Shown: positions 9,298 through 37,896, numbered from the stretch's first letter. The stretch: 64,000 nucleotides of DNA from an uncultured Candidatus Saccharibacteria bacterium (GCA_964361095.1 CAYHZA010000002.1:49594-113593), one strand, 5' to 3'. The notes: generated by a model from the letters alone, not told the origin. Translations and numbers: made by a program.

Positions 9298-9348
9298 AAT
9301 TTGGCACTTGAAAATCTGCGCCTCGGATACTCGGCGCGATTTTCTAAG

Positions 9349-9689: not shown

Positions 9690-10292
9690 ATGGAATCAAT
9701 GTTACATTTTTCCCGGCGCATAAAGCTTAGTATTGTATTTTTCGCGGTTGTTATCTCCGGCTATGTCGTTGTCCACTTGGTTGCAAGTTTGGGCGGCGTA
9801 CCGCAGGAATTTAACGAAGCGCGGCTCCAAGGGGCGCTTATTGCCCAGAATATCGTAGACCTTTCGAATAAATCGGCGAGCGATTTAGGGAAGATTAACG
9901 AACTTGACCGCCAGAGGAATTTTAACGAAGCGCTCGCGCTTACGACGCAGGTCATTGCGCAAAGCCAAGAAATTCGAAACCAGGCGGTAGCGCTTTCCTC
10001 GGAAATTGAAAAGATGACGAGGTCGCTTTCCGGCATCGGTTCGGATGAGGCGCGACAGGCGGCGCTTGAATCAATTACGAGCCGATTGGCGCTGATTAGC
10101 CGCCTCATTAACTACAGCGCGTCGCTTGAAAATCTTTTGAGCGTGTTGCGGAATCGTTTTGCCGGAGCGCCATCGAGCCATACGAAGGTTCAGGGAATGA
10201 TTGATCAGATCAATGCCGAGGTAACCGCGATCAATAGCTTCAACAATCAGGCTGTTCAGGCAATGGAGCGCTTTGACGCGTTGATAAAATAG
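9690..10292 (+). CDS. hypothetical membrane-anchored coiled-coil protein
   Basis: N-terminal TM helix 'LSIVFFAVVISGYVVVHLVASL' followed by heptad-like helical sequence. Confidence 0.45.
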   Translation: MESMLHFSRRIKLSIVFFAVVISGYVVVHLVASLGGVPQEFNEARLQGALIAQNIVDLSNKSASDLGKINELDRQRNFNEALALTTQVIAQSQEIRNQAVALSSEIEKMTRSLSGIGSDEARQAALESITSRLALISRLINYSASLENLLSVLRNRFAGAPSSHTKVQGMIDQINAEVTAINSFNNQAVQAMERFDALIK

Positions 10293-10320
10293 TTGAGGGA
10301 GGCGCAGGTCGTTATGGTAT

Positions 10321-10392
10321 GGGGGTGTAGCTCAACGGCAGAGCATTCGTCTTATACACGAACGGTTGGAGGTTCGAGTCCTCCCGCCCCCA
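10321..10392 (+). tRNA. tRNA with anticodon UAU (tRNA-Ile2-like, TAT)
   Basis: GGGGGTG-TA-GCTC-AACGGCA-GAGC-A-TTCGT-CTTATAC-ACGAA-CGGTT-GGAGG-TTCGAGT-CCTCC-CGCCCCC-A gives a clean cloverleaf. U33, A37 and anticodon TAT are present. No CCA is encoded. Confidence 0.7.
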
Positions 10393-10441
10393 CGATCTTA
10401 ATATGGAAAAGGTAAGGGACGCCTCGGCGGTTTCTGGCCAG

Positions 10442-10471
10442 CCCCGTTAGATATAGAATTATCTAACGGGG
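10442..10471. repeat. perfect 12-bp-stem palindrome in the tRNA/ftsH intergenic region
   Basis: ccccgttagata-tagaat-tatctaacgggg. Confidence 0.5.
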
Positions 10472-10503
10472 TGAAAGTCCAGGCGCACCCACTCAATTTT
10501 GCA

Positions 10504-10537
10504 CAAAAAATGCCCAAATAAATTGGGCATTTTTTTA
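10504..10537. terminator. bidirectional rho-independent terminator (ftsH on minus, tRNA on plus)
   Basis: AAAAAA-atgcccaa-ataaa-ttgggcat-TTTTTTT. Confidence 0.6.
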
Positions 10538-10566
10538 ACAGAGAGGCTACGATAAACTATTTTTTC

Positions 10567-12402
10567 CTATACCGCCATCGGTTTTATCTTAAAGGGCTTC
10601 AAGAGATTATAGAATTCGTCTTGTTCAAGCGTTTCTTTTTCCATAAGCGTCTTTGCTATTTTTTCGAGGGCGTTTTTGTTCACGCTGATAATCTTTTGCG
10701 CGGCTTTGTACGTGCGCTCAATGAAACTATGCACTTCGCTGTCGATTTCGGTCGCGACTTTTTCGGAGTAGTTTTTCTCCGTCGCGATTTCTCTGCCCAG
10801 AAATATCAGCTCCTCGGTTTTTCCGAAGGTCATGGGGCCCAATTTCTCGCTCATGCCGTATTTCGTAACGAGTCGTCGGGCGAGTTCTGAGGCTTCGCGC
10901 AGATCATTTGAGGCGCCGGTTGAAACATCGTTGAAAGTGAACTTTTCCGCGGCATATCCTCCCATCATGACGGCCATGTCATTTAAGAATTGATTTTTCG
11001 TTTTTAGGCGCTGTTCTTCAAGGGGAAGCTTCAAAGTATATCCGCCGGCCATTCCGCGGCTTATGATGGAGACTTTATGTACCGGGTCGGAATCTTTGAG
11101 CGATGCCGCGACAATCGCGTGGCCCGACTCGTGGTAGGCGGTGATCTCTTTCTCTCGCGTGGAAATGATGCGGCTTTTCCGCTCGGGTCCCAAGAGTACG
11201 CGCTCCACCGATTCCAAAAGGTCGTTTTCCGAAATCATTTTCGCCCCGCGTTTCGCGGCAAGGAGTGCCCCCTCGTTCATGAGATTCGCCAAGTCCGCGC
11301 CCGAAAATCCGGGTGTTCTCATTGATACTTTTTTGAAATCAATATTTTTTTCGATCGCTTTGCCGCGAGAGTGGATCTTGAGGATCGCTTCACGGTCGGC
11401 GAGATCGGGAAGGTCGAGCACGACGCGCCGATCAAAACGGCCCGGCCGAAGGAGCGCCGGATCGAGAATATCGGGGCGGTTCGTGGCGGCGAGGACTATC
11501 ACGCGCGTGTCGCGGTCGAAGCCGTCGAGTTCGACGAGGATCTGGTTCAAGGTTTGTTCGCGTTCATCGTTCCCTCCCCCGAGTCCTGCTCCCCGCTGGC
11601 GGCCCACCGCGTCAATTTCGTCCACGAATAGTATCGAGGGAGACGCTTTTTTCGCCGTGGCGAACGCGTCGCGTGTGCGAGCGGCGCCGACACCCACGAA
11701 CATTTCAACGAATTCGGACGCGGAGATGTGAAAAAAAGGAACATTGGCCTCTCCAGCGACGGCACGAGCAAGGAGCGTCTTCCCCGTTCCCGGCTGACCC
11801 ATAAGGAGCACGCCGCGCGGAATGCGCGCGCCAAGGTCGGTAAATTTCTTCGGGTTCTTCAAGAATTCCACGATTTCAATAAGATCATCCTTCGCTTCTT
11901 TGAGTCCCGCGACATCGCTAAACATGACTTTTTCTTTTCCGAGGTTCGAAAGACGGATGCTTGAGCGGCCGAAGTTAAACGCCTGATTGACGCCCGTTTT
12001 TGCCTGGCGCATCATAAGCCACAAAATAAAGCCGATAATAATAAGCGGAAGAAGTGTGGGAATCAAAATGCCTGCCCAAAATTGCCACCCCGACTGCTCT
12101 TCTATCGTCAAGGCCACCTTCTGGAGCGCCACGGAGTCAACGCCAAAGTTTTTAAGGGTTTCCGTAAGCCCCGCTTCCGCTTCTTTCTTCGAAACGGCTT
12201 TTACGCCATCGGCGAGCTTAATCTCGAGCGCGTCTCCGTTTATTTTGATTTCGGCTACCTGGCCGGCGTTGATCTGCTGGACGAGCTGATTGAGGGTAAA
12301 CACCTTTGGTGTTTCGCTGGTTTCAAGGAGAATCGAAAAGAAAAGCGAGATGAAGATTAAAGTCGCGATCGCCCACAGTACGTTTTTATAAAAGTGTGAC
12401 AT
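10567..12402 (-). CDS. ftsH: ATP-dependent zinc metalloprotease FtsH
   Basis: N-terminal TMs, AAA+ Walker A 'GQPGTGKT', SRH region, and zinc-binding 'HESGHAIV'. Confidence 0.9.
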
Positions 12403-12551
12403 AAATGTATTTAATTTTTCTTATATTCTAAAGGAAATTTTTTTATCGGTCAATATATATAGGTATGTACCGATGGTAATAGAGTTGCAAAATCCCCCAA
12501 GCCCGTGTAGATTTTCTAAGGAAAGCGGTGAGATTGAGCAGGAAGAAGCAT

Positions 12552-12627
12552 GGTGGGCGTAGCTCAATTGGTAGAGCTCCAGTTTGTGGCACTGGCGGTT
12601 GCGGGTTCAACTCCCGTCGCTCACCCA
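12552..12627 (+). tRNA. tRNA-His(GTG) with genome-encoded G-1
   Basis: G-GTGGGCG-TA-GCTC-AATTGGTA-GAGC-T-CCAGT-TTGTGGC-ACTGG-CGGTT-GCGGG-TTCAACT-CCCGT-CGCTCAC-C. Anticodon is GUG and the extra 5' G pairs with the discriminator C. Confidence 0.85.
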
Positions 12628-12667
12628 AAATACAAAGAACAGCGTATACGCTGTTCTTTGTATTTTG
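12626..12667 (+). terminator. rho-independent terminator after tRNA-His
   Basis: Perfect 19-bp stem caaaatacaaagaacagcg-tata-cgctgttctttgtattttg. Confidence 0.6.
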
Positions 12668-12799
12668 TCCTGAGCGTAGCGAGGGGCTACAATATGCATT
12701 GAAATGACGATGAACTATCTTAAATTTTCCACACTTACAAAAGAGAAAAAATGAAGATGCGGCAGGAACACGGTTGAGATTAGGGACAAATGTTTACAA

Positions 12800-13738
12800 A
12801 TGTTTACAAAATTTATCTCGCGTGGTAGATTAATAGTTATGAAAAAAGCATTACTTATTGGTTTTATTATTCTTATTTTGGGAGGAGGATATTCTATCGT
12901 AGTAGGTCTTCGTGGGTCAGATGATAAGAATGGAACTGCGCAAAAAATTGTGCCACAGAATACGTCTATTGATGAGAAATTATTCGCTCACTTCCTTATT
13001 GATGATGGTAAGTGCCGTGGGGTAAGAAATGATCTATATGCTATTGATGAGAAAGTGGTTGCTTGGATTGTTAACAAACCATGTCCGCCGGTTGTGTCCG
13101 AGGTAACACTTTGGGAAGGGAATCCATCTGCTGCTAATGGCCTACTTTGTACTTCTATTGCTACCAAACCAGATTTACCACAATGCCAAGATACACAATA
13201 CGAATCACTCTACGGCATTATTCGTGCAAACATCGACAAGAAAGATTTAGGGCTTGGTGCTTCTCATAGCATCAGGAAAATTACTTACAGCACCGAAGAG
13301 TTAGCTGTGGCGCGTGGGGATGTTAACCAACTATCATTTCGAGTGAGAGATTCAACGAGATTTTCTGATTTGGGTTCACTCAAGAGTGCCATTAATTTGT
13401 ACATATCAGAAGGCAACAAGCTCTCTGGATGCGGTTCGAGGACTCTCTATAAATCCAACATAGGGACTAAGGCATATGATGGAACTGGATGGCTACCGGT
13501 GAATTTGAAGAAAATCATATCAGGTTCTCCGTTCAATGAACTTCCTATCGATCCAGTGAATGATGCTAATTACTACTTTGTGTATGTTTGTAATTCCGCG
13601 ACGAACCAATATGAATTAAACGTGAACCTGCAGGGCGATCAATATGGGATGGGCGGGAGCCGCGATAAAGAATCAACCGATGGCGGAAATAACCCGGATG
13701 TATATGAATTGGGGACTGATTTAAGTCTTTTGCAATAG
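12800..13738 (+). CDS. hypothetical secreted/membrane-anchored Cys-containing protein
   Basis: 312 aa with N-terminal TM/signal 'KKALLIGFIILILGGGYSIVVGL'. No known domain. Lies directly downstream of tRNA-His. Confidence 0.5.
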   Translation: MFTKFISRGRLIVMKKALLIGFIILILGGGYSIVVGLRGSDDKNGTAQKIVPQNTSIDEKLFAHFLIDDGKCRGVRNDLYAIDEKVVAWIVNKPCPPVVSEVTLWEGNPSAANGLLCTSIATKPDLPQCQDTQYESLYGIIRANIDKKDLGLGASHSIRKITYSTEELAVARGDVNQLSFRVRDSTRFSDLGSLKSAINLYISEGNKLSGCGSRTLYKSNIGTKAYDGTGWLPVNLKKIISGSPFNELPIDPVNDANYYFVYVCNSATNQYELNVNLQGDQYGMGGSRDKESTDGGNNPDVYELGTDLSLLQ

Positions 13739-13905
13739 CAAAAAGAAGCTGCTTGTTCGAGTAGGAATCAGTTGCACCATTAGGCACCCCTGTTAAACAG
13801 TTTCTAATCCCATATGCCAGACGACCAAGGATAATTGACGCAAGATGCCAATTGTGCGACTCTTGCTATAGCTTTGACTAACCTCAATTCAATAAGGAGA
13901 GGAAG

Positions 13906-14229
13906 ATGGCAAAGAACGAAGACGATTTGCCTCCCTGCGACAGGAAGATTTTCAGGAAGGGGGAGCATATAGCGACCCTCGATGCCGAGCCGGAAGCTGC
14001 TGAGCGTTGGGTAAAAGCAATTGCCCAGAGAGCCAATGCGCGTGTGGATTGGCATTACTTCGGAGGACGCGCGTGCGTTAAGTTTTTGGGCAACGCGAAG
14101 TCTCGGAGTAGAGTCTTTCAGGCTATCGAAGAACTCGCCGATTTTCTCGATGGCCGCATACTTCGTAGCTTCGGGCCGAGCGATCCCCCGCCAAAAAGCT
14201 TCTTGCCCGTTTCTTCGTTCAATAAGTAG
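13906..14229 (+). CDS. hypothetical small protein (107 aa)
   Basis: Strong RBS 'aaggagaggaag' immediately upstream of the ATG and a terminator hairpin right after the stop. Preferred over the overlapping minus-strand ORF 13804..14253. Confidence 0.5.
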   Translation: MAKNEDDLPPCDRKIFRKGEHIATLDAEPEAAERWVKAIAQRANARVDWHYFGGRACVKFLGNAKSRSRVFQAIEELADFLDGRILRSFGPSDPPPKSFLPVSSFNK

Positions 14230-14258
14230 ACCGACTTGTCCGCGATGAGTCACATCTA

Positions 14259-14289
14259 GAACCCTTTGTTTAAAGGGTTCTTTTTTTTA
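14259..14289 (+). terminator. rho-independent terminator
   Basis: gaaccctttg-ttta-aagggttc followed by a T9 run. Confidence 0.6.
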
Positions 14290-14801
14290 CTTCAAGATTC
14301 GGTCAATCAAATTCTAATTCCATTCCATCGACTTTGCTCAGAGTAAAATGCCAGACAGTTTCCTAACTACCAATAATGAAGCCATTTCCTTCTTGAGAAG
14401 CTCTCGGAGGCAATTCGAGCTTGGTGTGCTTGGGCACTCGAATTGCCGAGAGGAAGCAGGCGCTTGCCGCTGGAGTAAGCGAACTGCGGTTTTCAAAAGA
14501 TAAAACCTAGAAGAAAGCCCGACGCTCCGCCTGCTCCGACCGAAGCGTCGGAGGTCGGGCTCCGACCCTGCCTTTGGAAGGCGTCGGAGTTATCCCCACC
14601 CCTCGTTTGACGCTTTCCTTCGGCACGCTACTATATAGGTATAGCTCTTTGTCATAATCCATAAGAAGAAAACATCAGTCGACCTAAAACGTCGGCACAC
14701 TCATCCACACAAGGGAAGGTTTCCTCGGAAACTCTTCCCTTTCGTATTTTTAATACCCTGTTTCCGAAGCCAATTTTATACATTGTGATATTCTTATACG
14801 C

Positions 14802-16439
14802 ATGGAACTTGCCGAAGAACTTAAGTCTTTTTTTACAGGGGATATTTTGCACGATGCCGAGACCATAAAAAAATACAGTCGCGACGCGAGTTTGTTCGAA
14901 ATCACGCCGGAGCTCGTTGTATTTCCCAAAGATGTCGCCGATCTAAAGAATCTCGTTCGTTTCGCCGCCGAGAAGAAGAAAGAAGGGAGGAAAATTTCGC
15001 TTACCGCGCGGTCTGCCGGCACGGACATGAGCGGCGGTTCTATCGGAGAATCGATCATCGTCGTATTTACAAAATACTTTACGCATACCGGCGAAGTAGA
15101 AGAGGGAACTCTTCGTTCCGAACCGGGCGTCTATTACCGTGATTTCGAAAAAATAACTTTGGAGAAGGGATATCTTTTCCCATCATACCCCGCGTCCAAA
15201 GAACTCTGCGCGATAGGGGGAATCGTAAACAATAACGCGGGCGGCGAGCGGTCGCTCGTGTACGGAAAAACCGAGGATTATATCGCTTCTATGAACGTGG
15301 TACTCGCGGATGGAAACGAATATACGTTGCGTGGCCTTTCTCGCGAAGAGCTTGACGAAAAATTGAGCGAGCCGGGATTTGAGGGAGAAGTATATCGCAA
15401 GATGTACAAGCTCTTGGAGGAAAATTATGACGTGGTAAAAGCGGCGAAGCCGAAGGTCTCCAAAAATTCGGCGGGGTTCAATGTGTGGGACGTGTGGGAC
15501 AAAAAAGAGTTCAATCTCGCGAAACTTTTCGTCGGTTCGCAGGGGACGCTTGGGCTGACGACCGAGGCGACCTTCCGACTCGTCAAAACAAAACCATATT
15601 CGGGAATGCTCGTCGTTTTTATGAAAGACCTTCGCCCACTCGTTGATCTCGTAAAAACAATCCTTCCTTTCGCGCCCACGAGCTTTGAATCTTTCGACGA
15701 TCACACGCTTCGTTTGGCGATGAGATTCCTTCCGGATTTTATTAAGCTTCTCGGATCAAAAAATATAATCTCCTTGGGATTGCAGTTTCTGCCGGAGTTC
15801 TGGCTCGTCTTAACGGAGGGAATGCCTAAGCTCGTTCTACTCGTTGAGTTTGAGGGCGATACGCAGGCGCAAGTGGATGAGAAGATAACGGCTCTGCGAA
15901 AACAGCTCAAAAATTTCCGCGTGAAGGTTCGGGTCGCGGGGACGAAAGAAGAGGCGAAGAAATATTGGGCTATCCGAAGGGAGAGTTTTAATCTTTTGCG
16001 CCATCGCGTCTTGAATAAACAGACCGCGCCGTTTATTGACGATGTAATCGTAGCACCGGAGAAGATGCCGGAATTTTTAACGGAGCTTTATAAAATTTTG
16101 GATCGCTATAAACTGCTCTACACTATTGCCGGACACGTGGGGAACGGCAATTTCCATATTATTCCCCTGATGTCGCTCGCGAAAGATGAGGACCGGCAAA
16201 AGATTCCTTTGGTTGCGGACGAAGTGTATGATCTCACCTTGAAGTACGGCGGATCCATTACCGCGGAGCATAATGACGGCTTGATTCGCGGGCCCTATTT
16301 GAAAAAAATGTACGGCGCGAAAGTATACGGAATTTTTAAAGAAATTAAGAGTATTTTTGATCCGGAAGACATCTTCAATCCCGGAAAGAAGATGGAGGCG
16401 GATTTGCAATACGCGCTCGCGCATATTAAGCGTTCATAG
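14802..16439 (+). CDS. FAD-binding oxidoreductase (GlcD/D-lactate dehydrogenase-like FAD-linked oxidase)
   Basis: 545 aa with an N-terminal FAD_binding_4-like region ('VVFPKDVADLKNLVRFAAE...SLTARSAGTDMSGGSIGE') and a C-terminal FAD-oxidase_C-like region. Confidence 0.75.
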   Translation: MELAEELKSFFTGDILHDAETIKKYSRDASLFEITPELVVFPKDVADLKNLVRFAAEKKKEGRKISLTARSAGTDMSGGSIGESIIVVFTKYFTHTGEVEEGTLRSEPGVYYRDFEKITLEKGYLFPSYPASKELCAIGGIVNNNAGGERSLVYGKTEDYIASMNVVLADGNEYTLRGLSREELDEKLSEPGFEGEVYRKMYKLLEENYDVVKAAKPKVSKNSAGFNVWDVWDKKEFNLAKLFVGSQGTLGLTTEATFRLVKTKPYSGMLVVFMKDLRPLVDLVKTILPFAPTSFESFDDHTLRLAMRFLPDFIKLLGSKNIISLGLQFLPEFWLVLTEGMPKLVLLVEFEGDTQAQVDEKITALRKQLKNFRVKVRVAGTKEEAKKYWAIRRESFNLLRHRVLNKQTAPFIDDVIVAPEKMPEFLTELYKILDRYKLLYTIAGHVGNGNFHIIPLMSLAKDEDRQKIPLVADEVYDLTLKYGGSITAEHNDGLIRGPYLKKMYGAKVYGIFKEIKSIFDPEDIFNPGKKMEADLQYALAHIKRS

Positions 16440-16456
16440 TTCACTGCTTTCAAAGA

Positions 16457-16485
16457 TTGACAAGGGCTAAAAATTCGGTTAAAAT
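16457..16485 (+). promoter_or_regulatory. near-consensus sigma70-type promoter (TTGACA-17 nt-TAAAAT)
   Basis: ttgaca at 16457-16462, a 17-nt spacer, and taaaat at 16480-16485. It sits in the 290-bp gap upstream of dcd. Confidence 0.4.
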
Positions 16486-16731
16486 GTTAATTCAGTCTGC
16501 TTTTTCGGCGTATCTTGAGCATCGTCTGCATCCTCCCGATGTCTCAAGGCAACCCTACTTCGAGAAAGCCGATAAAACTTGCGAAACGCCTTGTAGGGGC
16601 CTCCTCCTCTCGGCGTTTCGTAAGCCATTTCATGCAGGGGCCATTCGCTTGGTCCCTTTTTTATTTGAGTCCTTATTGTAAAAATAACTGCTTCGGTTTA
16701 TCCTCTTAAGAACAACCTTTTTACTTTTCCC

Positions 16732-17418
16732 ATGCTTCTTTCGCAAAACCAGATTTTGAAACACATGAAGAATGGAACGATCATTATCGATCCGTTCGAC
16801 GAGAGAAAATTGAAGACGGTAAGCTATGACATCACGCTCGGCGAGTGGTATTGGAAAGAACGGGCGCCCGGAGGCCGCGCGACAGTGCATAATGTGTACG
16901 ATGAAAAATCCACGGAGCTGATCTGGGAAGGACCGCTTAAGGCGCAATCAGTTGAAGCCGTTGAAGAACACCTCGGGAAGCAGTTCAAAAATATTCCTCC
17001 GGGTTCCAAGATAATCTTGCTTGAGCCGGGAGAAACGGTTTTGGGGCATACGGTTGAATTTATCGGCGGCAGGGATATCTGCGTCGCGAAAATGTACGCG
17101 CGTTCTTCGCTCGGCAGAAATTTTATCGAAGTGTGTAAAGACGCCGGATGGGGCGACGTCGGTTATTTTAACCGGTGGACGATGGAGATTACGAATAACT
17201 CCCGTTACTTTTCGATTCCGCTCGTGGTTGACCGCCGGATCGGACAGATGGTTTTTTACGAAGTGGCGCCGCTCGATAAAAAAAATGTTGACTACGTTGG
17301 TGAAGGAGGAAAATATCAAAGCTCGCAAGACGTGGAAGAGGTAAAGGCATCGTGGAAGCCCGAGATGATGATTCCCCGAATGCACTTGGATTGGGAGGTA
17401 AATACGCACAAGGCATAG
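16732..17418 (+). CDS. dcd: dCTP deaminase / dUTPase-superfamily protein
   Basis: N-terminus 'ILSQNQILKHMKNGTIIIDPFDERKLKTVSYDITLGEWY' resembles the Dcd 'ILSD.EI......G.I.I.P.......NSYDLRLG' pattern. Confidence 0.65.
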   Translation: MLLSQNQILKHMKNGTIIIDPFDERKLKTVSYDITLGEWYWKERAPGGRATVHNVYDEKSTELIWEGPLKAQSVEAVEEHLGKQFKNIPPGSKIILLEPGETVLGHTVEFIGGRDICVAKMYARSSLGRNFIEVCKDAGWGDVGYFNRWTMEITNNSRYFSIPLVVDRRIGQMVFYEVAPLDKKNVDYVGEGGKYQSSQDVEEVKASWKPEMMIPRMHLDWEVNTHKA

Positions 17419-17426
17419 CACTCCCG

Positions 17427-18647
17427 ATGCGCGATAAGGAAATCCAAAAACTTATTCACGGAGAGACGAAGCGTCAGAACGAAACACTGGATCTTATTCC
17501 GTCGGAAAATTTTGTCTCCGACGATGTCCTGCGCGCGCTCGGCTCTCCTCTTACGAACAAATATGCCGAAGGATATCCTTCGGCCCGCTATTACGGAGGG
17601 AACGAGTATATCGATAAGATAGAAAGTCTTTGCAAGGCTCGCGCTTTGAAACTTTTTGGTCTCAAAGAAGACGCGTGGCACGTAAACGTCCAGCCCTATT
17701 CAGGTTCTCCCGCAAATCTGGCAGTCTACGTGGCGCTGGTCCCCTTGGGCGAAAAGATTATGGGTCTTCAACTCGATATGGGTGGGCATTTAACGCACGG
17801 TCACAAGGTAAGTTTTACCGGAAAGGCGTGGCAGGCGGTGCCCTATGTGCTCGACAAGAAGACGGAACGGCTTGATTATGACGCGGTTTTACGCCTCGCG
17901 AAAAAAGAGAAGCCCAAGATTATCGTTGCGGGATACACCGCCTATCCTCGCGTCGTAGATTTTGCGAAGTTCCGAAAGATTGCCGATGCGGTGGGGGCGT
18001 ATTTGATGATTGATATGTCGCATATCGCAGGACTTATCGCCGGAGGCGCTTATCCCTCACCCTTCAAGTACGCGGATATCGTAACGACGACGGCGCATAA
18101 GACACTGCGCGGTCCGCGTTCGGCGCTTATCTTTTGTAAAAAAGAGTTTTCTCGCGCAATTGACCGCGCGATTTTCCCCGGACTTCAGGGCGGCCCGCAC
18201 GCGAATCAGATCGCGGCTGTCGCAGTCGCGCTTGGCGAAGCGCGTACGCCGGCTTTTAAAAAATACGCGAAACAAATCGTGCGGAACGCCAAAGCGCTCG
18301 CGGAGGCGCTCCGGAAAAATGGCTGGCGGATTGTTTCCGGCGGAACCGATTCGCACCTGCTTTTGGTGGATGTCGCCGCGCGCGGCATAGGCGGTAAAGA
18401 GGCGAGCGACAAACTCGAAGCGAGCGGCATTATCGTCAATAAAAATACGATTCCTTATGATCCGCGTCCGCCGATGGATCCGTCGGGTATTCGCTTGGGC
18501 ACGCCGGCACTCACTACCCGAGGGATGAAAGAAAAAGAAATGACTGTGGTTGCTCGAATGATTTCCGATGTATTACTTACGAATAAAAATATAAACCGTG
18601 AGGTGAAAAAACTGTGCCGCCGTTTTCCGCTATTGTATAAAATTTAG
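17427..18647 (+). CDS. glyA: serine hydroxymethyltransferase (start taken at the 'MRDKEIQKL' Met; upstream ATG at 17352 is unlikely)
   Basis: 'LIPSENFVSDDVLRALGSPLTNKYAEGYPSARYYGGNEYIDKIE' and the PLP-lysine context 'TTTAHKTLRGPR'. Confidence 0.9.
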   Translation: MRDKEIQKLIHGETKRQNETLDLIPSENFVSDDVLRALGSPLTNKYAEGYPSARYYGGNEYIDKIESLCKARALKLFGLKEDAWHVNVQPYSGSPANLAVYVALVPLGEKIMGLQLDMGGHLTHGHKVSFTGKAWQAVPYVLDKKTERLDYDAVLRLAKKEKPKIIVAGYTAYPRVVDFAKFRKIADAVGAYLMIDMSHIAGLIAGGAYPSPFKYADIVTTTAHKTLRGPRSALIFCKKEFSRAIDRAIFPGLQGGPHANQIAAVAVALGEARTPAFKKYAKQIVRNAKALAEALRKNGWRIVSGGTDSHLLLVDVAARGIGGKEASDKLEASGIIVNKNTIPYDPRPPMDPSGIRLGTPALTTRGMKEKEMTVVARMISDVLLTNKNINREVKKLCRRFPLLYKI

Positions 18648-18650
18648 AAA

Positions 18651-19466
18651 ATGATCATTGACGGGAAATTGATCGCCGATAAAATCGTCGGGGACTTAAA
18701 AGTTCGGCCACGCGTCGAGAAGTTCTTCGGCGCGGTTTTAGTAGGAGAGGATCCCGCCTCCGTTAATTTTTTGCGCCAAAAAGAAAAAGTCGCGAAGGAG
18801 CTCGGTATTGATTTTCGGCTTTATACATTGCCTGCGAGTATAACGACGGATGAGTTGCGCCGCGAGATTGGGCGTCTCGCCCAGCCGAAAAATTGCGGAG
18901 GGTTTATTGTTCAGCTTCCGCTTCCTGAGGCGTTGAATAAACACTATGTCTTAAATGCCATTCCGAAAGAAAAAGATATTGACGTATTGAGCGAAGCCGC
19001 GCTTGGTTCATTCTATTCCGGTCGGAACACTATCGTTCCTCCGTCGGTTGGGACCGTCAAGGAGATTTTAGGGATGCAGACGCGTGATCTTCGGGAACTC
19101 AAAGCAGTAATGGTGGGCGCGGGATTTTTAATCGGGAAGCCCGTCGGGTTCTGGCTTCAGAATCGCGTGGGAGAACTTACGGTCTTGGATAGTGAGGTGA
19201 AGGACCTTGAGGCGCGGCTCCGGGACGCCGATATCGTGATAAGCGGCGCCGGCCACCCCAAATTGTTTAGCGCGAAACATTTGAAGGAAGGAGCGACCGT
19301 CATCGACTTCGGATTTAACAAGATCAATGGGAAAATCGTGGGGGACTTTGACTCTGATGGCGCGGAGGAAAAGAATATTGCTTATACCAAAACACCCGGC
19401 GGTACCGGGCCGATTTTAGTCGCAGAATTGTTCAATAATTTTTATATACTCAATTCAAGATCCTGA
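18651..19466 (+). CDS. folD: bifunctional methylenetetrahydrofolate dehydrogenase/cyclohydrolase FolD
   Basis: 'IIDGKLIADKI...VLVGEDPASVNFLRQKEKVAKELGI' and the C-terminal NAD-binding 'VVGAGFLIGKPV'. Confidence 0.9.
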   Translation: MIIDGKLIADKIVGDLKVRPRVEKFFGAVLVGEDPASVNFLRQKEKVAKELGIDFRLYTLPASITTDELRREIGRLAQPKNCGGFIVQLPLPEALNKHYVLNAIPKEKDIDVLSEAALGSFYSGRNTIVPPSVGTVKEILGMQTRDLRELKAVMVGAGFLIGKPVGFWLQNRVGELTVLDSEVKDLEARLRDADIVISGAGHPKLFSAKHLKEGATVIDFGFNKINGKIVGDFDSDGAEEKNIAYTKTPGGTGPILVAELFNNFYILNSRS

Positions 19467-21615: not shown

Positions 21616-21736
21616 ATCTTTTCCATCCTTTCTGGGCTTAAGCCCACGAGTTGTGGCTCTCTTTGCTTATGCGGAGAGAGCGGTTCTGTAAATACACTAA
21701 CCCCTAAACGGTTAAATTGTCAACCTCTTGTAATAG

Positions 21737-21836
21737 TGGGCACTGGGGGGATCGAACCCTCGGCCTACTCGGTGTCCCGCACAAAGTGGACGGTGCAGGG
21801 ATTGAACCTGCGGCCCCCTCGGTGTCCCGCTCTGTG
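21737..21836 (-). repeat. two tandem degenerate copies of a tRNA 3' half (anticodon-arm-like, variable, T-arm, acceptor 3' strand), most similar to tRNA-Val
   Basis: Minus-strand units GACACCGAGGGGGCCGCAGGTTCAATCCCTGCACCGTCCA and GACACCGAGTAGGCCGAGGGTTCGATCCCCCCAGTGCCCA compare with tRNA-Val ACACCGAGTAGGCCGCTGGTTCGATCCCAGCATTGCCCA. Neither unit has a D-arm or a 5' acceptor strand. Confidence 0.55.
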
Positions 21837-21937
21837 CGGGATTGCGGTTTGTTCCTAAAAATTCTACGTGCACTCGAATTTTTAGACAAACCGGGAATAA
21901 ACGAGGTGCTCTGCATCACCCCATTACATTTGGGCAG

Positions 21938-22009
21938 TGGGCAATGCTGGGATCGAACCAGCGGCCTACTCGGTGTAAACGAGTCGCTCTACCACTGAGC
22001 TAATTGCCC
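21938..22009 (-). tRNA. tRNA-Val(TAC)
   Basis: Reverse complement GGGCAAT-TA-GCTC-AGTGGTA-GAGC-G-ACTCG-TTTACAC-CGAGT-AGGCC-GCTGG-TTCGATC-CCAGC-ATTGCCC-A. Flanked by a 13-bp inverted repeat, ccccattacattt / aaatgtaatgggg. Confidence 0.8.
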
Positions 22010-23004: not shown

Positions 23005-23435
23005 TGATAAAAGGAGTAGATTACATCGGAGTGTACGTTGTTTTCTTCTGTCACGACGGCAAGGGAAACTTTGTGATGGCAAAACGGAGCGCTCTCGCGC
23101 GAGATGAACAGGGGAGATGGGACATCGGCGGCGGGGGACTTGAGCACGGGCAGACGGCAGAAGAGACGCTCAAAAAAGAAATTCAAGAAGAGTATGGCAC
23201 GCAAGCAATTTCGTATGAGTTCTTAGGTTTTCGTGATGTGCATCGAGAACAGGACGAAAAGCGAACTCACTGGATTGCGCTTGATTTTAAAGTGCTTGTG
23301 GATCCTTTGAGTGTAAGACTAAATGAGCCTCATAAATTTGATGGGCTCTCATGGTTTACGCTCAGCAATATTCCTGAAAATTCTCATTCACAGTTTTCGG
23401 TTTTTTTAGAAAAATACCGCGAGCGACTTTCTTGA
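23004..23435 (+). CDS. Nudix hydrolase
   Basis: Nudix box 'GGGGLEHGQTAEETLKKEIQEEYG' (GX5EX7REUXEEXGU). The likely start ATG overlaps the terminal A of the tRNA-Pro CCA. The ORF-track start at 22962 lies inside the tRNA. Confidence 0.7.
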   Translation: MIKGVDYIGVYVVFFCHDGKGNFVMAKRSALARDEQGRWDIGGGGLEHGQTAEETLKKEIQEEYGTQAISYEFLGFRDVHREQDEKRTHWIALDFKVLVDPLSVRLNEPHKFDGLSWFTLSNIPENSHSQFSVFLEKYRERLS

Positions 23436-23474
23436 AGAAGATAGGGAATTTATGTACACTAAGTCCGGTCATTT

Positions 23475-23546
23475 GCCGCGGTAGCTCAGTGGCAGAGCGC
23501 GGCCCTGAAGAGGCCGGCGTCGGGTGTTCGATTCACCCCCGCGGCA
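23475..23546 (+). tRNA. tRNA-Phe(GAA)
   Basis: GCCGCGG-TA-GCTC-AGTGGCA-GAGC-G-CGGCC-CTGAAGA-GGCCG-GCGTC-GGGTG-TTCGATT-CACCC-CCGCGGC-A. Confidence 0.85.
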
Positions 23547-23570
23547 CATCAGAACGCAAGCGTCGTGACA

Positions 23571-23899
23571 TGGAGAAGCACCGAATCCATCGGTGTTTTT
23601 TTCATCTCTTCGATCGGTTCGTCCGACCGAGCCCCGGGGGGAATCGAAAACCCTCATGTAGTTATGGCTGTTCCGCGGGATGCAGACCGCTCCGTCTTCG
23701 GCTTCCGAAGATTCCGATCTGGGTCATGTAGGCCAGAATCGGCACGGCGCAGGGTACGCAGAGTTCAGCTTCGGCACTCGTTCCATACTCGACGAGCGTC
23801 GTCTGATCGTACATCCCGAACTCTATGCCACAACCACTACACAAACCTTCAATCATGGCGTTGTGATGTGATGAGTGTTTTCGACCTTTCGAAGATCAT
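23571..23899. repeat. 329-bp direct repeat, copy 1 (the same 329 bp recur at 24847..25175)
   Basis: All overlapping ORF-track translations are residue-for-residue identical between the copies. These include a 106-aa plus frame and the 64-aa and 63-aa small ORFs. Copy 1 starts 24 bp after the tRNA-Phe 3' end. Confidence 0.85.
23662..23856 (-). CDS. candidate small Cys4 zinc-ribbon protein encoded inside the repeat (second copy at 24938..25132)
   Basis: 64 aa 'MIEGLCSGCGIEFG...AELCVPCAVP' with CxxC-x22-CxxC spacing. No clear RBS, and the alternative antisense ORFs are Arg/Ser-rich, so coding status is uncertain. Confidence 0.3.
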   Translation of the reverse strand: MIEGLCSGCGIEFGMYDQTTLVEYGTSAEAELCVPCAVPILAYMTQIGIFGSRRRSGLHPAEQP

Positions 23900-24039
23900 G
23901 ATGGATCGAGAAAGGTGGTTGCGGTAGGAGGGAGATTCTGCCGGAGACGGCAAAGTAGCACGCCTTTACAACCCAAAGGAAGCTCGTTCAAAAAACGCCG
24001 GCTCTATCGCCGGTGTCTCAGGTTTAAGTCTCACGCGGG

Positions 24040-24267
24040 TTACGAATATTTTATTCCTGCACCGAACTCGTTCATGGCCATCACAACAGCGCGGGCAGTT
24101 TCTCGCTTCAGACGGTTTTTCCTCGGGATCATGGTCACGAAATGACCATCGGTCGTCTTCACCTTACAGTGCTTTCTTCCCTCGTAAATCTGAAAGCCAG
24201 CTCGCTTCGCGATCCGTTGGAGTTCTTCATACGAGCAATCGGCAGTCTTAACGTGGAGCTCCCGCAC
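24040..24267 (-). CDS. hicA: HicA-family mRNA interferase toxin
   Basis: 'GFQIYEGRKHCKVKTTDGHFVTMIPRKNRLKRETARAVVMAMNEFG' matches the HicA/YcfA-like pattern G.......GSH......G..VT.IP.......GT.RAIL. Confidence 0.65.
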   Translation of the reverse strand: MRELHVKTADCSYEELQRIAKRAGFQIYEGRKHCKVKTTDGHFVTMIPRKNRLKRETARAVVMAMNEFGAGIKYS

Positions 24268-24595
24268 GAGGGATGAGAAGTGTTAGTTTCTGGTCACGGC
24301 TCGGTGCGGGATAGGCATCCAAATGTTGAGCCGTCTCGACGGTTGGCAAGTAGGTAGGAACATAGGAAATGTACCTCTCGGGCACCTCAAGAAAAGTGCG
24401 CGCTGCATCATTGATCATCTCGATGAGTTCGGAGAAGGAATCAGCTTCGGTTCGACAACCGGCGAAGACTAGAATCTCTGCGCAGAAGCCCCCATCCTCG
24501 GATCGTTGCACCTGCACGGTGATTTCATGAGGAAACAAGGCGCGCAGCTTGCGGATTTCTTTTTTGTCTTTTTCTGTAAGTTTCTTTGCTCTCAT
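24248..24595 (-). CDS. hicB: HicB-family antitoxin (RNase-H-like fold N-domain)
   Basis: 'VQRSEDGGFCAEILVFAGCRTEADSFSELIEMINDAARTFLE' matches the HicB signature EDGG(Y/F)...P.LPGC.T.GDT.EEA. The gene overlaps hicA by 20 nt. Confidence 0.6.
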   Translation of the reverse strand: MRAKKLTEKDKKEIRKLRALFPHEITVQVQRSEDGGFCAEILVFAGCRTEADSFSELIEMINDAARTFLEVPERYISYVPTYLPTVETAQHLDAYPAPSRDQKLTLLIPRAGAPR

Positions 24596-24791
24596 ATTTT
24601 CATCGTACGCAAGAACAGCGGAAAGTCAATGTGCAAGCAAAGAACTCTGACTCACGCGGCAGCTATGCCCTCCTTTCCACCTTCGCCCGCTATGGTCCTA
24701 TGAGTTTTCAGCCTTGGGACCCTGGGACGCCCAGTATTTTCGGGACCTCGTTTGCCGTAAACCATGCGAGGAGATTCTCCAAAAGCTCCGT

Positions 24792-24826
24792 CAATGTTCG
24801 AGGTGTCCCACGATACGCGGCACCAC
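24792..24826 (+). repeat. 35-bp degenerate mimic of the tRNA-Phe 3' end (copy 1; copy 2 at 25984..26018)
   Basis: 'caatgttcgaggtgtcccacgatacgcggcaccac' is identical in both copies and shares 'tgttcga' and 'gcggcac' with the tRNA-Phe 3' end (gtgttcgattcacccccgcggcaca). Each copy is followed within about 20 bp by the 329-bp module or by the array end. Confidence 0.6.
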
Positions 24827-24846
24827 CTCGAACACGCTCGCTGTGG

Positions 24847-25175
24847 TGGAGAAGCACCGAATCCATCGGTGTTTTTTTCATCTCTTCGATCGGTTCGTCC
24901 GACCGAGCCCCGGGGGGAATCGAAAACCCTCATGTAGTTATGGCTGTTCCGCGGGATGCAGACCGCTCCGTCTTCGGCTTCCGAAGATTCCGATCTGGGT
25001 CATGTAGGCCAGAATCGGCACGGCGCAGGGTACGCAGAGTTCAGCTTCGGCACTCGTTCCATACTCGACGAGCGTCGTCTGATCGTACATCCCGAACTCT
25101 ATGCCACAACCACTACACAAACCTTCAATCATGGCGTTGTGATGTGATGAGTGTTTTCGACCTTTCGAAGATCAT
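24847..25175. repeat. 329-bp direct repeat, copy 2
   Basis: See copy 1. Begins 20 bp after tRNA-Phe mimic 1. Confidence 0.85.
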
Positions 25176-25272
25176 CATCGGGCAAGAACATCATCTGCGG
25201 TAGGAGGCTTAATTTGCCTTATTGGTAACAATTGACAGCCTTAGTCCCTTCTCGTAGGATTAAAGAATTACT

Positions 25273-25482
25273 ATGGTTAATGTAAACAATATCGATTTGA
25301 GAAAGATTAGCCAGGATCTTCGTAGCTTCGAGAATCAGTGGGTAGCGATTACCGAAGATACTCGCATCGTGGCATCCGGCCCTACCTATGGCGAAACCGT
25401 GCGCCAAGTGAAAGAGGGCAGCGACGTTGTCCTGCTTAAGGTACCATCCTTCGACGCTTCCCTCGCTCCTGTGGAGGCATGA
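25273..25482 (+). CDS. DUF5678-like small protein (69 aa)
   Basis: 'NQWVAITEDTRIVASGPTYGETVRQVK' resembles the DUF5678 core that typically precedes retropepsin-like proteases. Its stop overlaps the next gene's start (ATGA). Confidence 0.45.
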   Translation: MVNVNNIDLRKISQDLRSFENQWVAITEDTRIVASGPTYGETVRQVKEGSDVVLLKVPSFDASLAPVEA

Positions 25483-25898
25483 AGTTTGAGTATCAAAAAT
25501 TTATCCTCGGTAGTCACGACCCTCGAAAGCCGCTGGTGGCACGGCCGCTCATACCGGTCTCGCTCCATGGGAATGGAATGAAAACCCGGAGTCCCTATTT
25601 TGCTCTCCTTGATTCCGGAGCGGATCGAGTTATCTTCCCGGCCGATCTTGCCGCAGAGGTTGGTATCCCGGACATCGAGAAAGGAGAGCTCGAACCTGCG
25701 GTTGGTATCGCTGGCCAACGGGCCGATGTCTACTATCATAACCTTGCGCTTCAAGTTCTTGGGGACACACGGGTCCTTCCCACGGCCGTGGGATTCTCCC
25801 GGACAGTGTCATTGCCTATTCTCGGTCGGTCGTTTTTCAAGCATTTCAAAGTAGTTACCTTCTCAGAATCCAAGGAGGAAGTAGAGCTCAAGAATTAA
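25479..25898 (+). CDS. retropepsin-like (clan AA) aspartic protease
   Basis: Catalytic 'ALLDSGADRVIFPADLAAEVGI' (D-S-G-A motif) in a 139-aa protein. Confidence 0.6.
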   Translation: MKFEYQKFILGSHDPRKPLVARPLIPVSLHGNGMKTRSPYFALLDSGADRVIFPADLAAEVGIPDIEKGELEPAVGIAGQRADVYYHNLALQVLGDTRVLPTAVGFSRTVSLPILGRSFFKHFKVVTFSESKEEVELKN

Positions 25899-26022
25899 GA
25901 GGATGCACGGTATATTGTAACCACTACTGCGACTTCTGCGGATTCCCCACAATCCACTTCACGAGTTCCCTCAAAAGCCGATCCAATGTTCGAGGTGTCC
26001 CACGATACGCGGCACCACAACT

Positions 26023-26048
26023 AAAAAACAGCCGACTGGCTGTTTTTT
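26023..26048. terminator. bidirectional terminator (rpsA on minus; end of the cassette array)
   Basis: AAAAAA-cagcc-gact-ggctg-TTTTTT. Confidence 0.6.
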
Positions 26049-26054
26049 AGTTAC

Positions 26055-36741: not shown

Positions 36742-36822
36742 GGGCAGGTGGCGAAATGGCAAACGCACTAGCTTTAGGAGCTAGCGCCGCAAGGCTTGTG
36801 GGTTCAAGTCCCACCCTGCCCA
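36742..36822 (+). tRNA. tRNA-Leu(TAG), class II with a long variable arm
   Basis: GGGCAGG-TG-GCG-AAATGGCAAA-CGC-A-CTAGC-TTTAGGA-GCTAG-CGCCGCAAGGCTT-GTGGG-TTCAAGT-CCCAC-CCTGCCC-A. Confidence 0.8.
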
Positions 36823-36846
36823 CAAAAAGAGACCCCCAATTCGTTC

Positions 36847-37896
36847 TTATTTTCCCCCTCTTCTGCGTCCGTGAAATGATTTGTGGATTTCCCGCAGTTC
36901 TTTATTGGTAATGTGGGTGTAGATCTGCGTTGTGTTTATATTCGCGTGGCCCAAAAGTTCTTGGACCGAACGGAGATCGGCTCCGTTTATCAAAAGATCC
37001 GTCGCAAAGCTATGCCGGAGTTGGTGAGGATGTATTTTTTTTGGTATTCCCGACGCGATGGCGCGGTAATTCATAAGTCGTTGCACCGAGCGCGGTGTAA
37101 TTCTGCCGAGAATATTTTTTTCGTTTTTCGCGAGACTCACGAAAAGCGCCGATTCGGTGTCGCCGCGTTTTTCGAGATATTCTTTTATCGTTTTTTTTGC
37201 CCGATCCGAGAGAAAGACGACGCGTAATTTGTCGCCTTTTCCGCGGACGGTAAGTTCTCCTCGATTGAGATCGACATAGCGGTCGAGCGAGCAGAGCTCC
37301 GAGAGACGCAAACCGGTCGAGAAAAATGTTTCGAGTATCGCTTGATCACGCAACGCGCGAAAGTTCATTTTGGTCGGCCGCGCGAGGAGGCGTTCGAGGT
37401 CTTCGTAGTCGAGAACCTCGATTTGCCGACTCGGCACTTTAGGGAGTTCTATTTTTTCCGGCGCGAGAACTTTCATGTCGCGCCGCGTGAGATACTTCAA
37501 GAAATTGCGAAGCGCGATGACGTAATATCCTTGGGTAACTTTTTTAAGCGATTGGCGTATTTCGTCGGAGTTCCTTACGGCAACGGGGCGGGCAAGATGA
37601 AGTCGAAAGGCGCGGACGATCGTTTCGGTGATCTGTGAAGGAGAAGATATCTTTGCGAACTTAAGGAACTCCTTCAGATAGCGTTCATAATTTTCCCGCG
37701 TTTTCGGTGAACGGTTTTTTTCGATCTCCAAATAATTCAAATATTCTTCAAGGTAGGCTTCAATCGAGGATGCCATAACATCATTGTACTCCGTGGCTGA
37801 GGGAAGCGACAATGACATCTTTTGCGTTGAATAAGTATCATAGTAAATGGGCATCATCTTCGAGAACCGCCCCTTTATTTTCCCTATTCCTTGCAT
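36847..37896 (-). CDS. tyrosine site-specific recombinase, XerC/XerD family (or integrase)
   Basis: C-terminal catalytic 'HQLRHSFATDLLINGADLRSVQELLGHANINTTQIYTHI' and an N-terminal SAM-like core-binding domain. It sits 25 bp downstream of the tRNA-Leu 3' end. Confidence 0.8.
   Translation of the reverse strand: MQGIGKIKGRFSKMMPIYYDTYSTQKMSLSLPSATEYNDVMASSIEAYLEEYLNYLEIEKNRSPKTRENYERYLKEFLKFAKISSPSQITETIVRAFRLHLARPVAVRNSDEIRQSLKKVTQGYYVIALRNFLKYLTRRDMKVLAPEKIELPKVPSRQIEVLDYEDLERLLARPTKMNFRALRDQAILETFFSTGLRLSELCSLDRYVDLNRGELTVRGKGDKLRVVFLSDRAKKTIKEYLEKRGDTESALFVSLAKNEKNILGRITPRSVQRLMNYRAIASGIPKKIHPHQLRHSFATDLLINGADLRSVQELLGHANINTTQIYTHITNKELREIHKSFHGRRRGGK

Follow-up and report, generated by a model that had tools for sequence, protein, structure and literature searches.

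A tandem array of two small recombinase-less units behind a tRNA-Phe gene, probably derived from large serine recombinase islands of Patescibacteria

A stretch of 64,000 nucleotides of DNA from an uncultured Candidatus Saccharibacteria bacterium (GCA_964361095.1 CAYHZA010000002.1:49594-113593; hereafter, the window) carries, behind the 3' end of a tRNA-Phe gene at positions 23475-26051, a tandem array of two units of 1.2-1.3 kb with two cargo genes each. Judging from sequence comparison, these units are probably two degenerate, recombinase-less derivatives of the large serine recombinase (LSR) islands that are inserted at the 3' ends of tRNA and transfer-messenger RNA (tmRNA) genes in Patescibacteria. 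The ends of the units read as the two halves of the 3' end of an LSR gene split by integration, and for this reason the units can be considered degenerate, non-autonomous derivatives of ordinary LSR islands. We regard the LSR-derived origin and the attachment site (att) architecture as likely, and the present-day mobilizability of the units as distinctly doubtful. The first-pass annotation of the window had listed, in this order, tRNA-Phe, a module, a hicBA-like pair, a 35-nt segment, the module again, a DUF5678/protease pair, the 35-nt segment again and a terminator, all of which have been recovered in the sequence, and had noted that neither unit encodes a recombinase; indeed, no recombinase open reading frame (ORF) is found within 23475-26051. 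Its further remark that the array was not recognizable as any described element type is not supported, the ends being homologous to the att region of LSR islands.

The target of integration is the tRNA-Phe(GAA) gene (23475-23547, plus strand), which was identified by ARAGORN and matches the Rfam tRNA model with 64.9 bits; an Rfam scan of the region returned tRNA matches and no other family. In four relatives with the same convergent gene order (L007, L024, L028 and L034), tRNA-Phe and rpsA, the gene for ribosomal protein S1, are separated by 57-205 bp, compared with 2,507 bp in the window, and this difference identifies the 2.5 kb as an insertion between the two genes. The chromosomal flank on the right is a native bidirectional terminator with a 15-bp stem (26019-26052), which serves both tRNA-Phe and rpsA and is followed at 26055 by the rpsA stop codon on the opposite strand; in L034, a terminator hairpin likewise stands directly after tRNA-Phe.

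The last 8 nt of tRNA-Phe (23540-23547, plus strand; the attL side) constitute a core, CGCGGCAC, that is shared by three sites, the other two being the junction between the units (24816-24823) and the right end of unit 2 (26008-26015). At the first two sites, the core sits exactly 23 nt before a copy of the 329-bp module, from which it is separated by the variable spacers J1 (23548-23570, plus strand) and J2 (24824-24846); the chance of an 8/8 match in such a fixed register is 1.5e-5. At both right ends, the core together with 27 further nucleotides is identical, with no recombinase gene between them. This 35-nt segment (24792-24826 and 25984-26018, the second copy ending in the core and directly followed by the native terminator) lies in a region of similarity that stretches to 56 nt at 84%, and its 34-mer occurs exactly twice in the 64 kb, with 0 occurrences expected. 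The earlier proposal that units without a recombinase of their own were inserted one after another, site-specifically, behind the tRNA is broadly borne out by this geometry. The accompanying description of the 35-nt segment as a mimic of the tRNA 3' end has stood in part: the segment is repeated twice and ends in the tRNA 8-mer, but it is no structural mimic, being coding sequence for AYRG(T/R)PRT plus 5-8 nt of target core. When it was aligned with the tRNA 3' end, ungapped local alignment recovered the 8-mer alone (shuffle p ~0.03) and gapped alignment added TGTTCGA (p ~0.002), and any resemblance beyond the core appears thin.

The organization around the core is also suggestive of an LSR site. 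The junction between the units contains a perfect 11-bp inverted repeat, TGTTCGAGGTG / CACCTCGAACA (24795-24805 and 24824-24834), and the 35 nt common to both right ends correspond in size to about one attP half-site plus core, with the tail beyond them decayed. The motif GTTCGA, the count of which is raised just mildly in the array, lies 22 nt from the core end in the tRNA and 28 nt from it in the left arm of the putative attP. In LSR sites the outer binding motif is shifted by ~5 bp between attB and attP half-sites, a shift that Rutherford and Van Duyne are said to have described in 2013, and the two spacings would fit it. The empty site is predicted to read ...CACCCCCGCGGCAC joined across the insertion point to CACAACTAAAAAACAGCC, and attB would equal the tRNA-Phe 3' end plus CACAACTAAA....

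The nature of the ends is indicated by locus L078, in which an intact LSR with the Pfam domains Resolvase, Recombinase and Zn_ribbon_recom is encoded directly upstream of a DUF5678-protease gene pair. The C-terminus of this LSR, ...ITLAIPFRLISEREKLSHGG-AYRGTCRTWEQILKQLITHFEPEAGLAEAA up to the stop codon (...SHGG-AYRGTCRT...AEAA), has its counterpart in the ...VRGGA-AYRGTPRT... of the window, which is encoded across the boundary of units 1 and 2; read on the minus strand, this junction gives ...LLHHSERVRGGA-AYRGTPRTLTELLENLLAWF... in one frame, with the AYRGTPRT tail uninterrupted, as in the 3' end of an LSR gene. In tblastn searches, the L078 C-terminus aligns to the junction (24854-24759, E 0.003) and to the second right end (E 0.017), and on the basis of this match and of its folding the segment 24795-24846 is classed as an attP-like junction. 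LSR tails from L078, L066 and L071 align to both right ends with E values of 2e-5 to 2e-9 (2e-5 to 6e-8 for unit 1) and with a frameshift in each.

Both right ends, then, are minus-strand remnants of LSR tails. The remnant in unit 1 (24652-24823; match to a right-end hidden Markov model (HMM) at 24659-24823, 2e-30) reads AAYRGTPRTLTELLENLLAWF..., continues in another frame to a C-terminal part ending ...GIAAA before the stop codon, and takes in most of the 35-nt segment at 24792-24826; the remnant in unit 2, on the attR side (25895-26018; HMM match at 25913-26015, 2e-20), reads AAYRGTPRTLDRLLRELVKWIVGNP... and then ...SAEVA in another frame. The right end is conserved at the protein level as AYRG(R/T)PRT..LL..L..WF..NPT..F...AA followed by a stop codon, and the terminal copies of this ORF have no start codon. 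The ORF has no counterpart among Pfam or PHROGs families or in plasmid and phage sequences; it is identified as the C-terminal tail of an LSR because the L078 enzyme carries the same tail, and the notion of an independent small gene split by attP was dropped on the same ground. Apart from this tail after the core, all that remains of the LSR body in either unit is ~25 codons before the core. The 3' end of the LSR gene thus appears to contain the attP core: the codons GGT GGT GCC in the window complement GGCACCA, the tRNA-Phe end with CCA, just as CAT GGT GGA in L078 complements CTCCACCA, the tmRNA end with CCA.

In the proposed mechanism, the attP core codons, of the form ...(S/R)-(H/G)-G-(G/A) and exemplified by GGT GGT GCC, would complement the tRNA end GGCACCA, and integration would split the LSR gene because the core lies within its 3' end. 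The body of the gene would come to rest beside the tRNA, reading toward it (attL), and the last 30-55 codons (AYRG(R/T)PRT...AA plus stop) would land at the far end of the island (attR). The array would then be composed of attL (tRNA, core and J1, which would hold degenerate last LSR codons), unit 1, an attP-like junction (tail remnant, core and J2), unit 2, attR, the native terminator and rpsA, an attP-like junction being what is expected to stand between tandem integrants of one family. In both units, the 329-bp module, with its palindromic left end and a 64-aa zinc-ribbon ORF, would replace the LSR body. We infer that the units were inserted by an LSR and could still be excised or inserted if a cognate LSR and its directionality factor were supplied in trans.

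Hainich groundwater assemblies, as well as a Patescibacteria metagenome-assembled genome (MAG) at NCBI, contain the protease and the S1 protein of the flank; the closest GTDB genomes are Paceibacteria-type MAGs with S1 identity of 57-76%. The order S1, tRNA-Phe, tRNA-Pro/Arg, tRNA-Val, tRNA-His is kept in 46 related loci, and the space 3' of tRNA-Phe varies among relatives from 14 bp to 6 kb, occupied, for example, by an LSR island in L042 and by a CBASS-like (cyclic oligonucleotide-based antiphage signaling system) island in L046. LSR genes of the same family meet tRNA genes in several of these loci: a complete 532-aa LSR in L021 (13059-14657) has its last codons and stop inside tRNA-His, and others run into tRNA-Pro in L025 (10434-10583; 60% identity over 50 aa, E 2.5e-12) and into tRNA-Arg in L012 (10323-10481). 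The family thus seems to accept many different tRNA genes. The LSR of L042 (~9246-10776) abuts tRNA-Phe, and its C-terminus has no match to that of the L078 enzyme. Another LSR C-terminus homologous to the L078 LSR was observed at a tRNA 3' end in L017 (6482-6586).

The LSR-less module itself occurs at tRNA-Phe, tRNA-Leu and tmRNA in three organisms. At tRNA-Leu, where the gene for the zinc-ribbon homologue P0042 adjoins the tRNA, the left end starts 24 nt after tRNA-Leu and is ~80% identical to that of the window, the zinc-ribbon proteins being just ~40% identical; in the LSR frame, it reads NTLGFPVFLRHVECPSHGA, compared with ITLAIPFRLISEREKLSHGGA in L078. The homologue P0044 is encoded in a Ca. 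Liptonbacteria MAG beside a DUF5678-protease pair, in an array behind the tmRNA gene (L066, reverse complement, ~7875-19360), in which units of 2 kb and 9.3 kb follow the tmRNA in this order, each closed by a right-end site, and a terminator comes after the second site. Twice in this array, the right end GTTCGAGGTnTnCCnCGATACGC runs into 5-6 nt that repeat the 3' end of the target itself, the full form being GTTCGAGGTCTGCC(A/C)CGATACGC and then TCCAC, the tmRNA end, where the window has GGCAC. Over the conserved 23 nt, the right ends of the window and of the tmRNA array are identical at 21/23 positions, and they are followed by the target-derived GGCAC (tRNA-Phe) or TCCAC (tmRNA); these 23 nt are thus to be read as family sequence and only the last 5-8 nt as target-specific. 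The homologous modules and right ends at tRNA-Leu and tmRNA would fit mobility in trans.

Several observations on these loci stand apart. In the tmRNA array, a genuine 22-nt copy of the tmRNA 3' end lies ~170 bp past the second right end, and the 9.3-kb unit carries XRE plus IrrE-like, Prok-E2_E, JAB, ThiF and PHP-ATPase genes and no recombinase recognizable by Pfam. At tRNA-Leu, an rve-type (IS481/IS3-like) transposase gene is found ~100 nt upstream of the P0042 ORF in L061-L063 and a different sequence there in L064, which may reflect an insertion sequence polymorphism inside the tRNA-Leu unit. A degenerate right-end motif retrieved eight loci from Joint Genome Institute (JGI) metagenomes, five of them true relatives (L068, L069, L071, L074 and L075) and three (L070, L072 and L073) chance matches that were rejected, and none from IMG/VR; the exact 29-nt right-end sequence was found neither in JGI metagenomes nor in IMG/VR, and two IMG/VR matches to a 19-mer of the left end were both discarded as chance.

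The 329-bp module is present at 23571-23899 (copy 1; left-end HMM match at 23549-23664, 2e-25) and 24847-25175 (copy 2), with 0 mismatches and sharp edges; weaker similarity continues for ~45 nt beyond the right edge, to about 23942/25218, and contains the box TGCGGTAGGAGG. The left end of the module forms a large imperfect palindrome centered on a hairpin plus T7 at ~23577-23602, which was missed by a consensus terminator scan and is shown by folding, and which probably terminates transcription of the tRNA. Its outer arms consist of the tRNA 3' end and an inverted copy of that end. This copy (23631-23653, minus strand, in module 1, and 24907-24929 in module 2) covers the T arm and acceptor strand, is identical to tRNA-Phe in 21/24 alignment columns with a score of 31 (shuffle maximum 20; non-cognate targets <=16), and pairs with 23522-23545 to form a long hairpin of -34.3 kcal/mol (z -3.5); the whole arm including J1 scores 41 against its mirror (shuffle maximum 24). 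In all three homologous modules, the inverted copy fits the cognate target, that is, tRNA-Phe in the window, tRNA-Leu in L064 and tmRNA in Ca. Liptonbacteria, and scores against non-cognate targets are at background level. The simplest account would be a fold-back deletion of the LSR body, followed by arm-to-arm correction after retargeting; the inverted copy may serve to terminate or insulate transcription, provide a folded substrate for recombination or influence which target is chosen. Readings of the copy as part of an IS200/IS605-like, Tn7-like, bridge-RNA or guide-RNA system were dropped as primary explanations, and the left end is interpreted as a palindromic remnant of an attL junction.

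The minus-strand ORF in each module (23662-23856 and 24938-25132) encodes a 64-aa protein with four cysteines in the arrangement CxGCG...ELCxxC. An exhaustive phmmer search found four database relatives (P0001, P0042, P0043 and P0044), and comparison among them marks the protein as a real, conserved and very rare family. It matches no family in Pfam, NCBIfam, PADLOC or PHROGs, two of the relatives giving weak PHROGs matches to families of unknown function; the AlphaFold2 model is poor (pLDDT, the predicted local distance difference test score, of 64) and has no significant Foldseek match, and codon-usage scoring of the ORF did not separate native from foreign. Descent from the zinc ribbon of an LSR is not claimed, as hhalign gave a probability of 1%. 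A role as directionality factor would be a guess.

Taken further, these features could mean that the LSR-less units are self-propagating minimal satellites of tRNA-targeting LSR islands that hop between tRNA and tmRNA genes via helper recombinases, with the inverted copy at the left end or the zinc-ribbon protein taking an active part in the hijacking, as a folded recombination substrate, directionality factor or target chooser, and with the -AA tail of the LSR serving as an integration-dependent switch of recombinase stability or direction. We consider this scenario unlikely.

A number of observations weigh against the interpretation of the array as LSR-derived units with intact att architecture, and against their mobility. 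The center of the 11-bp inverted repeat is located ~2 nt left of the shared 8-mer, within which a crossover dinucleotide is unplaceable, and J1 and J2, which are expected to be equivalent arms, are just ~50% alike despite the identical modules that adjoin them. Both LSR tails in the window are frameshifted pseudogenes, which means that the units may be dead relics, and tblastn with three LSRs detected no LSR gene in the 64 kb, which makes the helper hypothetical. The tandem order depends on a 329-bp repeat that is unresolvable by short-read assemblers. Finally, the contigs available for the locus contain no presence/absence polymorphism, empty site or circle junction, and Logan contig L002 continues from rpsA unbranched into the second 35-nt segment, where an empty site should produce a branch.

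Some of these observations would equally be expected if the array consisted of inert scars, i.e. of two old LSR integrations whose recombinase genes were deleted and which have become fixed and immobile, the repeats being kept alike by gene conversion. The frameshifts, the failure to find an LSR in the 64 kb, the lack of polymorphism in the contigs and the codon usage of the cargo, which is just mildly atypical, are all compatible with such a history, and we hold it to be quite possible, if short of probable. It does not readily explain why the same LSR-less deletion architecture recurs at tRNA-Phe, tRNA-Leu and tmRNA in three organisms, a recurrence that requires movement after the loss of the LSR, nor why the 35 nt of att half-site and core have been preserved perfectly beside decayed neighboring sequence.

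The assembly data bear on the tandem order. Contig L001, from an independent assembly of this population, connects tRNA, J1 and module directly to the cargo of unit 2, and a separate contig of 1,057 bp, L003, spans unit 1 and shares 55 bp with the module on either side; the coverage is 3x and 2x, respectively. The chromosome could then carry one unit (tRNA, J1, module, DUF5678-protease pair and right end), with unit 1 existing as a 1,276-bp circle (module, hicBA-like pair, right end and J2) or as the allele of another strain that the assembler inserted by way of the shared 329-bp repeat, given that tandem and loop are indistinguishable in the graph when the repeat exceeds the k-mer length. We regard this arrangement as quite improbable. 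The near-equal coverage of the two contigs fits one integrated copy per genome, a 1.3-kb circle would not be expected to persist in the absence of replication genes, the window contig resolves the region as a tandem, and the array in Ca. Liptonbacteria is a real tandem with units of unequal length and no long internal repeat; moreover, the nature of the ends would be unchanged even if it were true. The J2 junction (cargo 1, right end, J2 and module) is physically supported by L003. Because L001 skips unit 1 and L003 covers it, the tandem order and the perfect identity of the modules are inseparable from repeat handling by the assembler; they could be assembly effects, the copies possibly representing one collapsed consensus. 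The match of the modules noted in the first-pass annotation is exact in the window but, for this reason, not a safe sign of recent mobilization. The module of L001 differs from that of the window by three clustered substitutions (S to M in the small ORF), and the single-unit structure of L001 was rejected as unproven evidence for polymorphism since L003 covers unit 1. Upstream of tRNA-Phe, L001 (4539-4701, sample H51) differs from the window (23300-23474), the NUDIX gene being replaced by what is, by its look, presumably a GIY-YIG-type C-terminus; this reflects either a strain difference or a chimeric contig.

It is very improbable that the units are moved by a tyrosine recombinase, be it the host Xer-like enzyme encoded at 36847-37896, in the manner of integrative mobile elements exploiting Xer (IMEX) and pdif modules, or an integrase acting on tRNA-anchored cassettes of the integron type. 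The window does contain this one Xer-type gene (Phage_integrase E 2.5e-40, XerA model above cutoff), the shared 8-bp core would suit an overlap region, and toxin-antitoxin cargo is typical of integron cassettes and pdif modules. Integron cassettes, clusters of attC sites lacking integrases (CALINs) and pdif modules or IMEX resemble the units of the window in being small, recombinase-less, arrayed and dependent on an enzyme encoded elsewhere. However, the ends of the units are homologous to an LSR gene and not to dif or attC. An attC site has the organization R''-L''...L'-R', with RYYYAAC first and GTTRRRY second, whereas the window junction has GTT first and AAC second, the reverse of the R''/R' order, and its inverted repeat is not conserved in the Ca. 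Liptonbacteria array; IMEX and pdif modules are flanked by 28-bp XerC/XerD (dif-like) sites, and no such 11-6-11 site is readable at the junctions. Neither IntI nor attI was identified, the integron-integrase model scoring 114.8 against a cutoff of 265, and the integron-like alternative raised earlier falls with them. The sole tyrosine recombinase, located 11 kb away, had likewise been put forward as the cognate enzyme. This XerC/D-type gene (region 36742-37896) stands alone between tRNA-Leu(TAG), 24 bp from it, and rpsO, in convergent orientation, and since the 3' end of tRNA-Leu has no repeat in the 64-kb window, it is probably a housekeeping Xer.

Non-autonomous transposons, either mobile insertion cassettes with a 5-6-bp duplication or IS200/IS605-like elements inserting 3' of a pentanucleotide, can hardly account for the array: just 5-8 nt are common to the target and the ends and flank each unit like a duplication, the right end folds to an imperfect subterminal hairpin ~8-11 nt from the end, and L051-L054 carry a Y1 transposase gene close to a related cargo pair, but the left termini are wholly unconserved over 23-36 nt, the family has no terminal inverted repeats in common, a search of the 64-kb window found no homologue of a DDE or Y1 transposase, and the right end is explained as LSR coding sequence.

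As derivatives of LSR islands, the units share with LSR elements and prophages (phiC31, Bxb1 and A118 types, the Ccr system of SCCmec and TndX of Tn5397) ends that come from an LSR gene, a short core with imperfect inverted repeats, the outer-motif shift between attP and attB, and, in relatives, LSRs of the same family at the junctions. They differ in that the units of the window encode no LSR, in that the attP core appears to be within the 3' coding region of the recombinase itself, such that the C-termini of the free and integrated forms differ, and in the target, which is the last nucleotides of tRNA and tmRNA genes; the usual targets of LSRs are protein-coding genes. In mycobacterial phages with integration-dependent immunity, which Broussard reportedly described in 2013, attP likewise lies inside a gene and integration alters the C-terminus of the protein; in those phages, however, a repressor gene is split and the integrase is a tyrosine recombinase. 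Here, the free form of the LSR has a longer tail ending in -AA (AEAA, EVAA or KLAA), which the integrated form lacks, and the presence of the tail in the excised form only suggests, from the sequences compared, an integration-dependent control of the recombinase. Intact LSR tails ending in -AA or similar were observed in L078 (1-1302), L066 (10228-10449 and 896-1192), L071 and L068 (3029-3223), and these endings on the excised form of the enzyme resemble ssrA-type degradation tags.

The loss of the recombinase with retention of att sites is reminiscent of cis-mobilizable elements (CIMEs), which are said (Pavlovic in 2004 and Bellanger in 2011) to derive from ICESt1/ICESt3 by loss of the integration and conjugation genes. 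Like the units of the window, CIMEs accrete in tandem at one site and could be mobilized by a related integrase; unlike them, they use tyrosine integrases at the fda locus and have had their mobilization demonstrated experimentally. Stacking at tRNA genes is, in turn, a feature of tycheposons, which include fragmented integrases and, in a minority, use LSRs (10.1101/2020.12.28.424599), and islands in tRNA genes have been mapped by Islander (PMC4383910). In both tycheposons and the array, each new integration at the tRNA displaces the older elements outward, degenerate remnants occur and the cargo is of defense or addiction type; tycheposons and tRNA-stacking islands mostly employ tyrosine recombinases, repeat long partial tRNA copies and measure 10-20 kb, whereas here 5-8 nt of the tRNA are repeated and the units measure 1.2-1.3 kb. 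Stacking at tRNA genes that leaves degenerate remnants is well described, and derivatives that have lost the recombinase but retain att sites are known. What the sequences present as distinctive is an LSR family at the very end of many tRNA and tmRNA genes with the attP core apparently in the 3' coding region of the recombinase, and, among its derivatives, an unusually small size with two cargo genes and a palindromic left end that holds an inverted copy of the cognate target.

Patescibacteria have tiny genomes, and little has been described of their gene exchange. The locus and its relatives point to LSR islands that land on the last nucleotides of many tRNA and tmRNA genes in these bacteria and that decay to stacking units of 1.2 kb comprising att sites and a toxin-antitoxin-like or protease pair. 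If such minimal units are still mobilized in trans, they would, to our knowledge, rank among the smallest site-specific integrative cassettes. An LSR family that accepts generic T-loop and acceptor ends of tRNAs would offer short, defined att sites (~24795-24834) of interest for genome-engineering recombinases, and a split recombinase gene whose tail is made in the free form only is a testable idea on the control of integration direction or enzyme level.

The cargo of unit 1 (24040-24595, minus strand) consists of two small overlapping genes, HicB-like (24248-24595; Pfam HicB_lk_antitox E 0.064, 13.9 bits, cutoff 27) and HicA-like (24040-24267; Pfam HicA_toxin E 0.0026, 18.2 bits, cutoff 27), with a terminator of their own just outside the HicA-like gene (23998-24013, minus strand). 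Their earlier designation as hicB-hicA holds for the gene arrangement and is weakened by both Pfam matches being below threshold; a weak structure match (E 0.11) is to TTHA1756, which we take to be HicB-like. The cargo of unit 2 (25232-25898, plus strand) comprises a promoter-like site (25232-25260; TTGACA, 17 nt, TAGGAT), a DUF5678 gene (25273-25482; Pfam E 5e-10, 39.5 bits, cutoff 23.2) and a gene for a retropepsin-like aspartyl protease (25479-25898; Asp_protease_2 E 6e-5, 24.1 bits, borderline to the cutoff of 24.3), in agreement with what had been read from the sequence at first. Homologues number 39, and the DUF5678-protease pair, a conserved one in Patescibacteria, is kept together in every context examined and is also found in the LSR islands L051-L053, L058 and L078.

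The site after tRNA-Phe can be called a hotspot for defense cargo because the CBASS-like island in L046 (830-5918), which encodes an SMODS nucleotidyltransferase and a SAVED effector, directly follows this gene. In five other relatives (L011, L012, L014, L022 and L026), tRNA-Phe is split at the anticodon loop by ~200-240 bp, as at 3185-3217 and 3420-3461 in L022, and was missed by ARAGORN; these split genes fit the group I introns described in tRNA genes of Patescibacteria (PMC13011429).

Traces of integration are present at two further tRNA genes of the window. Downstream of tRNA-Val (21937-22009), at 21736-21850 on the minus strand and hence on the strand of that gene, there are two tandem fragments resembling tRNA 3' halves (remainder of the anticodon stem, T arm and acceptor). 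Such fragments classically mark att sequences displaced by earlier integrations whose crossover lay in the anticodon loop. The other trace, probably left by an integrated element that was small or has since been deleted, is an 18/20-nt direct copy of the tRNA-Gly 3' end at 9348-9367 (minus strand), located 146 bp downstream of the tRNA-Gly gene (9494-9567).

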